This document shows, piece after piece, positions 13,061 to 13,096 of a stretch of DNA of 64,000 nt. The stretch covers positions 131,688,001 through 131,752,000 of the forward strand of contig OZ024740.1 in the NCBI GenBank assembly GCA_964016885.1, written 5' to 3'. Made by a program: the position numbers and the translations under genes. Source of the DNA: Eledone cirrhosa. Its lineage: Eukaryota. A model generated the notes under the pieces. The model ran no database searches. It saw only the letters and a program-made list of their open reading frames with translations, and was not told the origin of the DNA. The first letter of the stretch is position 1. Each line of letters begins with the position of its first letter.

Positions 13061-13096
13061 CTTTTGAAAAGCAGAAGAACTGCGAAACCGGTAAAG
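13061..13096 (+). ncRNA. Minimal type I hammerhead ribozyme, U3-A8 core variant
   Basis: CTT-TTGAAAA-GCAG-aagaa-CTGC-GAAA-CCGG-TA^-AAG; palindromic stem III (ACCGGT). Confidence 0.7.

Follow-up and report, generated by a model that had tools for sequence, protein, structure and literature searches.

The window, by which we mean the whole stretch of 64,000 nucleotides that was analysed, contains a group of hammerhead ribozyme motifs in which the core pair C3-G8 is replaced by U3-A8. We read these motifs as minimal type I hammerheads lying near the 3' end (pseudo-LTR) of Penelope-like elements (PLEs) that target (TA)n, or of non-coding derivatives of such elements, and we put the probability of this reading at about 85%. 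The U3-A8 variant is already known, and the motifs represent neither a new ribozyme class nor a new core variant; the families that carry it here (A/B, C and D) are new, and so, probably, is their host group. A preliminary description of this DNA had listed five U3-A8 motifs, and all five were found where it placed them, including the GCAA in both arms of a palindrome. As a hammerhead set, the list was incomplete: it overlooked family D, ten hammerheads with the canonical C3-G8 core and the Penelope-like hosts. The U3-A8 features of the window are the following.

13061-13096, plus strand: A1, a minimal type I hammerhead with the U3-A8 core TTGAAAA at 13064-70.
13019-13171, plus strand: family A unit of ~150 nt, flanked by (TA)n runs at 13006-13018 and 13168-13197.
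24495-24530, minus strand: A2, a paralog of A1, in a unit (24419-24585) that is 88.6-88.8% identical to the A1 unit.
27458-27861: B palindrome, located between (TA)n runs, with zero spacer and 2 mismatches in 202 nt.
27586-27622, minus strand: B left arm, U3-A8 core with GCAA, homologous to family A.
27697-27733, plus strand: B right arm, U3-A8 core with GCAA, also homologous to family A.
13423-13470, minus strand: C, a U3-A8 hammerhead with a 5-bp stem II, 148 nt upstream of a (TA)n run.
24648-24741, minus strand: D1, a U3-A8 hammerhead with U as N7, a 6-bp stem I, a long loop II and a 10-nt palindromic stem III.
25384-25476, plus strand: D2, the decayed inverted partner of D1, with A9 changed and the stem III palindrome broken.

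The strict U3-A8 descriptor, which was written post hoc after the motifs had been seen, matched three sites in the window with GAAA and five with GNAA, the five representing only two or three independent lineages. It was also applied to 300, 300 and 200 shuffled sequences that preserved the 2-, 3- and 5-mers, respectively. The mean number of hits was 0.01 or less and the maximum 1, and none of the 800 shuffles reached the observed count. Within the window, this comparison with shuffled sequence, of the kind that the preliminary description had proposed, puts the motifs above chance. A relaxed descriptor was used with all 16 combinations of N3 and N8. It found nine C-G sites (shuffle mean 0.07), five U-A sites (shuffle mean 0.34, maximum 2) that come from only two independent lineages, as many as the shuffle maximum, and a single site for the other 14 combinations together. 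Neither the C-G nor the U-A count was reached in any of 200 shuffles. This result favours, without proving, an occurrence of U3-A8 motifs above chance, and the restriction of the enrichment to C-G and U-A agrees with the earlier view of U3-A8 as a compensatory variant.

Words such as TTGAAAA and GAAA occur frequently in AT-rich DNA, and the motifs might be no more than one fortuitous match that was later duplicated. Such an origin could appeal to the 55 occurrences of TTGAAAA in the window, to the post hoc nature of the descriptor and to the missing folding-energy signal described below. However, even two strict matches were found in none of the 800 shuffles, the mismatched 3/8 controls are empty, the stems covary between A1 and A2, and the motifs share their context with the canonical hammerheads. 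We consider a chance origin extremely unlikely.

A core with a Watson-Crick 3/8 pair, GAAA and UH is present in A1, A2, C and D1, but not in B (changed at A13) or D2 (changed at A9). In the U3-A8 motifs, stem II is closed by G10.1-C11.1 and stem I is open-ended, with a length of only 3 bp in A and B. A literal CTGANGA pattern misses them, as had been predicted. No Rfam hammerhead model was among the 150 of 245 window matches listed, nor among the 18 of a second scan; the canonical-core copies were absent from the matches listed as well, which means that these models cover the minimal form poorly. Sub-threshold matches of Rfam microRNA models to (TA)n runs and to the palindrome were discarded as hairpin artefacts.

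A1 is the best-preserved member of the A/B lineage. Its stem I comprises 3 bp (13061-63/13094-96), its stem II 4 bp with the closing pair G10.1-C11.1, and GAAA is located at 13084-87. Stem III is a self-complementary segment of 6 nt with a palindromic CCGG, and the cleavage site is UA, with a predicted cut after A13093. The unit at 13019-13171 is read as the 5'-truncated 3' end of a retroelement. A2 is laid out in the same way; its stem II includes a G-U pair and its stem III the letters CTGG. A1 and A2 differ by 11 substitutions over 129 columns, 4 of which fall within the 36 columns of the motif and none in the core. All four preserve pairing: two make up the stem I change from CTT/AAG to CAT/ATG, and the other two convert G-C to G-U. 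The stem I difference, which the preliminary description had called compensatory, is a true double change, and when the A1/A2 substitutions were placed at random (200,000 simulations), an intact motif together with this double change had a P of 0.003. In a four-row alignment all 24 cells are paired, which 16 of 500 shuffles equalled, and the rows are related.

The homology of B to the 13061/24495 family extends past the motif (77% over 66 nt, E 3e-9), and the 45-nt 5' flank of B, taken alone, matches family A with P 0.001. As the homology reaches beyond the motif, A and B form one lineage. The claim that several unrelated repeats use the variant therefore had to be given up for the palindrome, and among the families additional to A/B only D (24648-24741) looks independent. 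The GCAA of B corresponds to a change of core A13 to C in both arms. Since A13 belongs to the hammerhead consensus core (PMC3088659), the B hammerheads are, judged by sequence, probably inactive. The GCAA copies thus do possess the U3-A8 motif ascribed to them, but probably not the activity of a hammerhead. That the change is common to both arms is explained by the arms being copies of one event.

The hammerheads of the B palindrome point outward, an arrangement like that of an inverted Penelope-like copy with a 5' truncation. A palindrome of this kind could also be a MITE or fold-back DNA transposon, or a microRNA hairpin, without any relation to hammerheads, as its perfect inverted arms and the matches of Rfam microRNA models below the gathering score (77.9 of 100 bits) might suggest. 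This is very unlikely, because single-arm copies homologous to each of the arms occur elsewhere in the window, because outward-facing hammerheads are also found in three other inverted repeats, and because the microRNA matches reflect only the long hairpin. At E below 1, an A/B covariance model run over the window recovered the four known A/B copies and nothing else. The weak matches (E 2.7-4.3) included the two arms of D (E 3-4) as well as a degenerate stretch at 63413-63452 (minus strand, E 2.8). This stretch has a U3-A8 core and an A/B-like stem II, lacks the right half, and is either a chance match or a decayed copy.

Stem I of C has two contiguous pairs and then a C-U mismatch at the third pair, and C is probably decayed. 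C and A2 (24495) have the letters of stem I and stem III in common. The 5' flank of C has no significant homology to the A/B lineage, and the P of 0.008 for its 3' flank against A2, one of 56 tests, is not significant once corrected. Family D lies in an inverted repeat with arms at ~24590-24875 and ~25250-25535. A reading of D, made by eye, in which the core lies nearer (with A6 changed and a stem II of 2 bp) was set aside; the far core is preferred because the 6-bp stem I is kept in both arms and because of the best dimer fold. Taken together, B, C, D2 and perhaps A2 look decayed. The termini of A and D are alike, being T-rich and located ~65-80 nt past the cut (13155-13171, 24419-24435, 24590-24605), and are possibly a common 3'-end signal.

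A1, A2, B and C are each accompanied by a UCAA, a few bases upstream, that can pair with U3-A6 and so hide the core. The hairpins are located as follows.

13050-13067: upstream UCAA hairpin of A1.
24524-24541: upstream UCAA hairpin of A2.
27686-27703: upstream UCAA hairpin of B.
13462-13472: upstream UCAA hairpin of C.

The U3 core may in this way bring its own off-switch. Such hairpins are also present at 54 of the 656 TTGA words and at 8 of the 55 TTGAAAA words, and because of this background of 8-15% the two independent cases are only suggestive.

Ten canonical C3-G8 hammerheads are found in the same window, one in E, eight in family F and one in G. U3-A8 accounts for about half of the hammerhead families (A/B, C and D versus E, F and G).

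12813-12892, minus strand: E, canonical C3-G8 hammerhead with a 7-bp stem II and a 9-nt stem III segment, in a neighbouring TA-bounded unit.
14872-14902, minus strand, and 15260-15290, plus strand: F inverted pair, outward-facing in the inverted repeat 14635-15511.
58514-61605: F tandem array with a 493-bp unit, 5.6 copies, 97% matches and the last unit inverted.
62378-62415, minus strand: G, canonical core with a weak stem II, found by eye; it failed the descriptors.

The F array contains six canonical-core hammerheads, one per unit, and the inverted pair at 14.6-15.5 kb has diverged from the array copies. F hammerheads have a stem I of 6-7 bp and, in seven of eight copies, a U10.1-U11.1 mismatch, a deviation also treated in PMC3088659; in the eighth copy 10.1-11.1 is paired and U16.1 is lost. 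By its sequence organisation, family F appears retrozyme-like, as it fits the description of non-LTR retrozymes, which are short repeats without coding capacity whose type I hammerheads act as dimers (PMC7229834; bioRxiv 10.64898/2026.07.22.740005).

The presence of this 493-bp tandem array with one hammerhead per unit raises the possibility that the U3-A8 units, too, are monomers shed by non-LTR retrozymes, i.e. by tandem non-coding hammerhead repeats that spread via circular RNA. Solo monomers have been described, and a derivation of retrozymes from Penelope-like elements has been put forward (bioRxiv 10.64898/2026.07.22.740005). However, no U3-A8 family in the window is tandem (at E below 1, the A/B model returns only the four known copies), and the stems of these families are minimal. 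Retrozymes mostly have canonical hammerheads with a longer stem I (PMC7229834), and the A1 unit is merely ~150 nt long and bounded by TA. We regard shed retrozyme monomers as a rather unlikely source of the U3-A8 units and prefer their derivation from the 3' ends of Penelope-like elements.

The preferred derivation is consistent with the position of the hammerheads, which lie ~60-190 nt upstream of (TA)n runs. With G excluded, a run was located no more than 200 nt downstream of the cut at 15 of 16 hammerhead sites (8 of 9 when collapsed to loci), compared to 14.2% of random positions, and no more than 200 nt upstream at only 3 of 16. The run closest to A2 is an internal one; the terminal run lies at a distance of 141 nt. 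The hammerheads face outward in each of the four inverted repeats that contain them (B, D and two F loci). Penelope-like elements are typically truncated on their 5' side, form partial tandems and carry at the 5' end a 5'-truncated copy in inverted orientation (PMC8557442). Two features of a PLE 3' end are found here: a sense hammerhead near the 3' terminus, and 5' truncation with inverted or tandem copies. Two inverted repeats, 12277-12680 and 9243-9426, also adjoin (TA)n runs and contain hammerhead-like fragments, none of which passes the descriptors. Two coding relics of Penelope-like elements were identified in the window.

9730-11305, plus strand: decayed, frameshifted and 5'-truncated Penelope-like ORF with RT, linker and endonuclease, of the Hydra-clade type (tblastn E 1.5e-58).
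62601-63091, minus strand: second decayed fragment of a Hydra-type endonuclease (tblastn E 1.6e-14).

Both fragments match long proteins and carry stops and frameshifts. A word-index protein search with the frame 10392-11096 yielded nothing among 286 candidates, and an exhaustive search yielded 2,387 relatives. Among four relatives of the ORF relics, RWK was present in two, and DK[TS], CxCx5-7C, CxxC-E and CxH in all four; RWK, DKT, CxCX5C, CxxC-E and CxH mark the (TA)n-targeting Hydra clade (PMC8557442). Neither this frame nor any of four long relatives is recognised by Pfam, so the assignment to the Hydra clade derives from the motifs given in that paper. When 150 Hydra-type proteins were compared to the window by tblastn, matches were obtained only at 9.5-11.5 kb and 62.5-63 kb. 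No ORF in the window is contiguous with any U3-A8 copy by tblastn, and none is expected for truncated copies. No hammerhead was found behind the first Hydra-type ORF. An assignment of 13061 as its 3' end was unproven and was rejected, because the distance is ~1.75 kb and TA-bounded units as well as two (TA)n runs intervene. G lies in sense ~180 nt beyond the point where the second Hydra-type ORF ends and provides a link between a hammerhead and a Penelope-like 3' end within the window. A preference for (TA)n is common to the Hydra, Neptune and Naiad clades, and that of the U3-A8 units is thus not diagnostic of Hydra. Frameshifted remnants that, by eye, are like the GIY-YIG endonuclease of another Penelope-like clade were noticed at 16900-17450 (plus strand), and downstream of them, also by eye, a decayed minimal hammerhead-like stretch at 18190-18220 (plus strand).

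Folding energies of the monomers gave no signal in any of five stretches (z from -1.0 to +0.45), and for A1, A2, B and C the monomers form stem I with a probability of 0.01 or less. A missing monomer signal is expected of minimal motifs that act as dimers, but it lends no support. Hammerheads of PLEs did not cleave as monomers and cleaved slowly as dimers (PMC4209133), and that of a Poseidon element needed the protein of the element for cleavage (PMC11167929). The predicted energy of the stem III self-duplex was -8.3 kcal/mol for A1 and B, -3.2 for A2 and C, and -13.4 for D1. The double-hammerhead fold of A1 has -15.5 kcal/mol, compared to -11.4 for two monomers; in its best dimer fold (-19.1), stems II and III are kept and stem I is not. 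For D1, the double hammerhead itself is predicted to be the best dimer fold. This fold is weak in A2 (-5.2), B (-8.7) and C (-2.8), and the full double hammerhead is not the best dimer fold of A1, A2, B, C or E.

We propose that reverse transcription would begin at the 3' end of the element and usually abort early. The resulting copies would be tails of 150-500 nt that contain the hammerhead and are often joined by another truncated copy in inverted orientation, and subsequent insertions would nest in the same microsatellites. The region of 12.7-15.5 kb reads as successive separate short tails, each inserted into microsatellites. In the tandem transcript of the parent element, two motifs might pair via their self-complementary stem III and swap the strands of stem I to give a double hammerhead with two active sites. 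Cleavage of such a dimer after the UH site would be slow and probably assisted by protein. U3-A8 would be a compensatory Watson-Crick substitute for C3-G8, and selection would have acted in the parent lineages, not on the genomic copies in the window. We give measurable cleavage by an A1 dimer about even odds.

Alternatively, the fold could have been inherited from hammerheads while cleavage is irrelevant now, with the motifs being passengers that are kept for protein binding or for the start of reverse transcription. A13 is changed in both arms of the near-perfect B palindrome, and the F copies have a U-U mismatch at 10.1-11.1. For a Poseidon element, RNA with a dead ribozyme was inserted as usual in vitro and none of the reads had its end at the cut site (PMC11167929). 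Naiads spread without canonical hammerheads. On the other hand, the core of A1 and A2 is unchanged while the stems covary, the 3/8 pairs are only Watson-Crick and this pair is part of the catalytic fold, and the change in B is one event that was copied into both arms. Passengers of this kind are possible, although we judge them unlikely.

Covariation of C3-G8 to U3-A8 has been reported in several natural hammerheads, with reference to earlier in vitro activity of covarying 3/8 pairs (Perreault et al. 2011, PMC3088659). U3-A8 was found in Cercyon elements of Schistosoma, where a dedicated descriptor applied genome-wide in 2014 gave ~1,300 hits, versus ~2,000 for the usual core (Cervera and de la Pena 2014, PMC4209133). 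The novelty that the preliminary description implied for U3-A8 is thereby lost. Unlike the motifs of the window, the natural U3-A8 examples are not tied to tails of animal retroelements in the section of PMC3088659 that presents them. The Cercyon elements of Schistosoma mansoni are closer, since they share type I, U3-A8 and the core UUGAAAA (family 4, Fig. S3), and the core of their family 3, UUGAUAA (Fig. S3), is also U3-A8. Cercyon hammerheads, like those described here, are mostly solo copies, with pairs on opposite strands 100-700 bp apart and a presumed activity as dimers (PMC4209133). However, in the Schistosoma motifs an additional base separates A9 from 10.1, stem II is longer and stem III is nearly absent (PMC4209133), whereas A, B and C lack the additional base and possess a stem II of 4-5 bp and a palindromic stem III of 6 nt. 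The host differs as well, and by target preference the clade probably does too.

Elements of the Hydra clade, including Hydra-1_Obim, resemble the window in having a sense hammerhead near the 3' end, (TA)n targets, a palindromic stem III and inverted 5'-truncated copies (Craig et al. 2021, PMC8557442). In contrast to the U3-A8 motifs, all 26 Hydra rows of File S2, among them one from Octopus bimaculoides, have C3-G8; stem III in these rows is mostly 4 bp with a short loop (PMC8557442). With regard to a link to Naiad, two right-half motifs occurred at three places in the supplement of PMC8557442, none of them with U3-A8, although line breaks in that text may hide matches. The literature covered, an incomplete selection, contains no report of a U3-A8 hammerhead in cephalopods or in Hydra elements, and variant surveys may include some.

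The U3-A8 set may include a clade for which only C3-G8 has been published (Hydra), or one reported to lack canonical hammerheads. A bolder suggestion, which we consider less likely than not, is that U3-A8 arose repeatedly in TA-targeting PLEs, with roughly half of the families escaping standard searches and with an off-switch located upstream. In this single 64-kb window about half of the hammerhead families do escape CUGANGA searches, and if the suggestion is true, surveys based on CUGANGA have undercounted the hammerheads of this animal by about half. A known core variant is extended to new retroelement families and probably to a new animal group. Sister families with C3-G8 and U3-A8 in one genome form a natural test set for a possible selection of Penelope-type hammerheads for cleavage (PMC8557442, PMC11167929).

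The window consists of AT-rich animal DNA with a GC content of 27-54% per 2 kb, 77 (TA)n runs across its 64 kb and numerous ORFs of non-LTR reverse transcriptases. A large inverted repeat (33965-34820 / 35249-36104) has arms of 856 nt that are 98% complementary and 428 nt apart; descriptor scans of 33965-36104 found no hammerhead. A short-period tandem repeat at 25839-26482 lies within a duplicated unit of ~420 bp. A SINE-like repeat of ~190 nt occurs at ~18390-18570, 23770-23960, 24930-25120 and 27070-27405, and we take it to resemble octopus tRNA-derived SINEs, a tentative hint that the host is an octopod. By eye, a decayed RTE-like copy is visible at 29.8-31.8 kb (plus strand). An RT ORF of 1,136 aa at 38878-42288 (plus strand) is without an endonuclease match in Pfam; in a protein search with the ORF at 38911-42285 the best matches had 63%, and the named relatives were distant arthropod proteins. 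On the minus strand, an endonuclease-RT ORF of 1,152 aa at 49083-52541 is preceded by an ORF1-like frame at 53022-54140.
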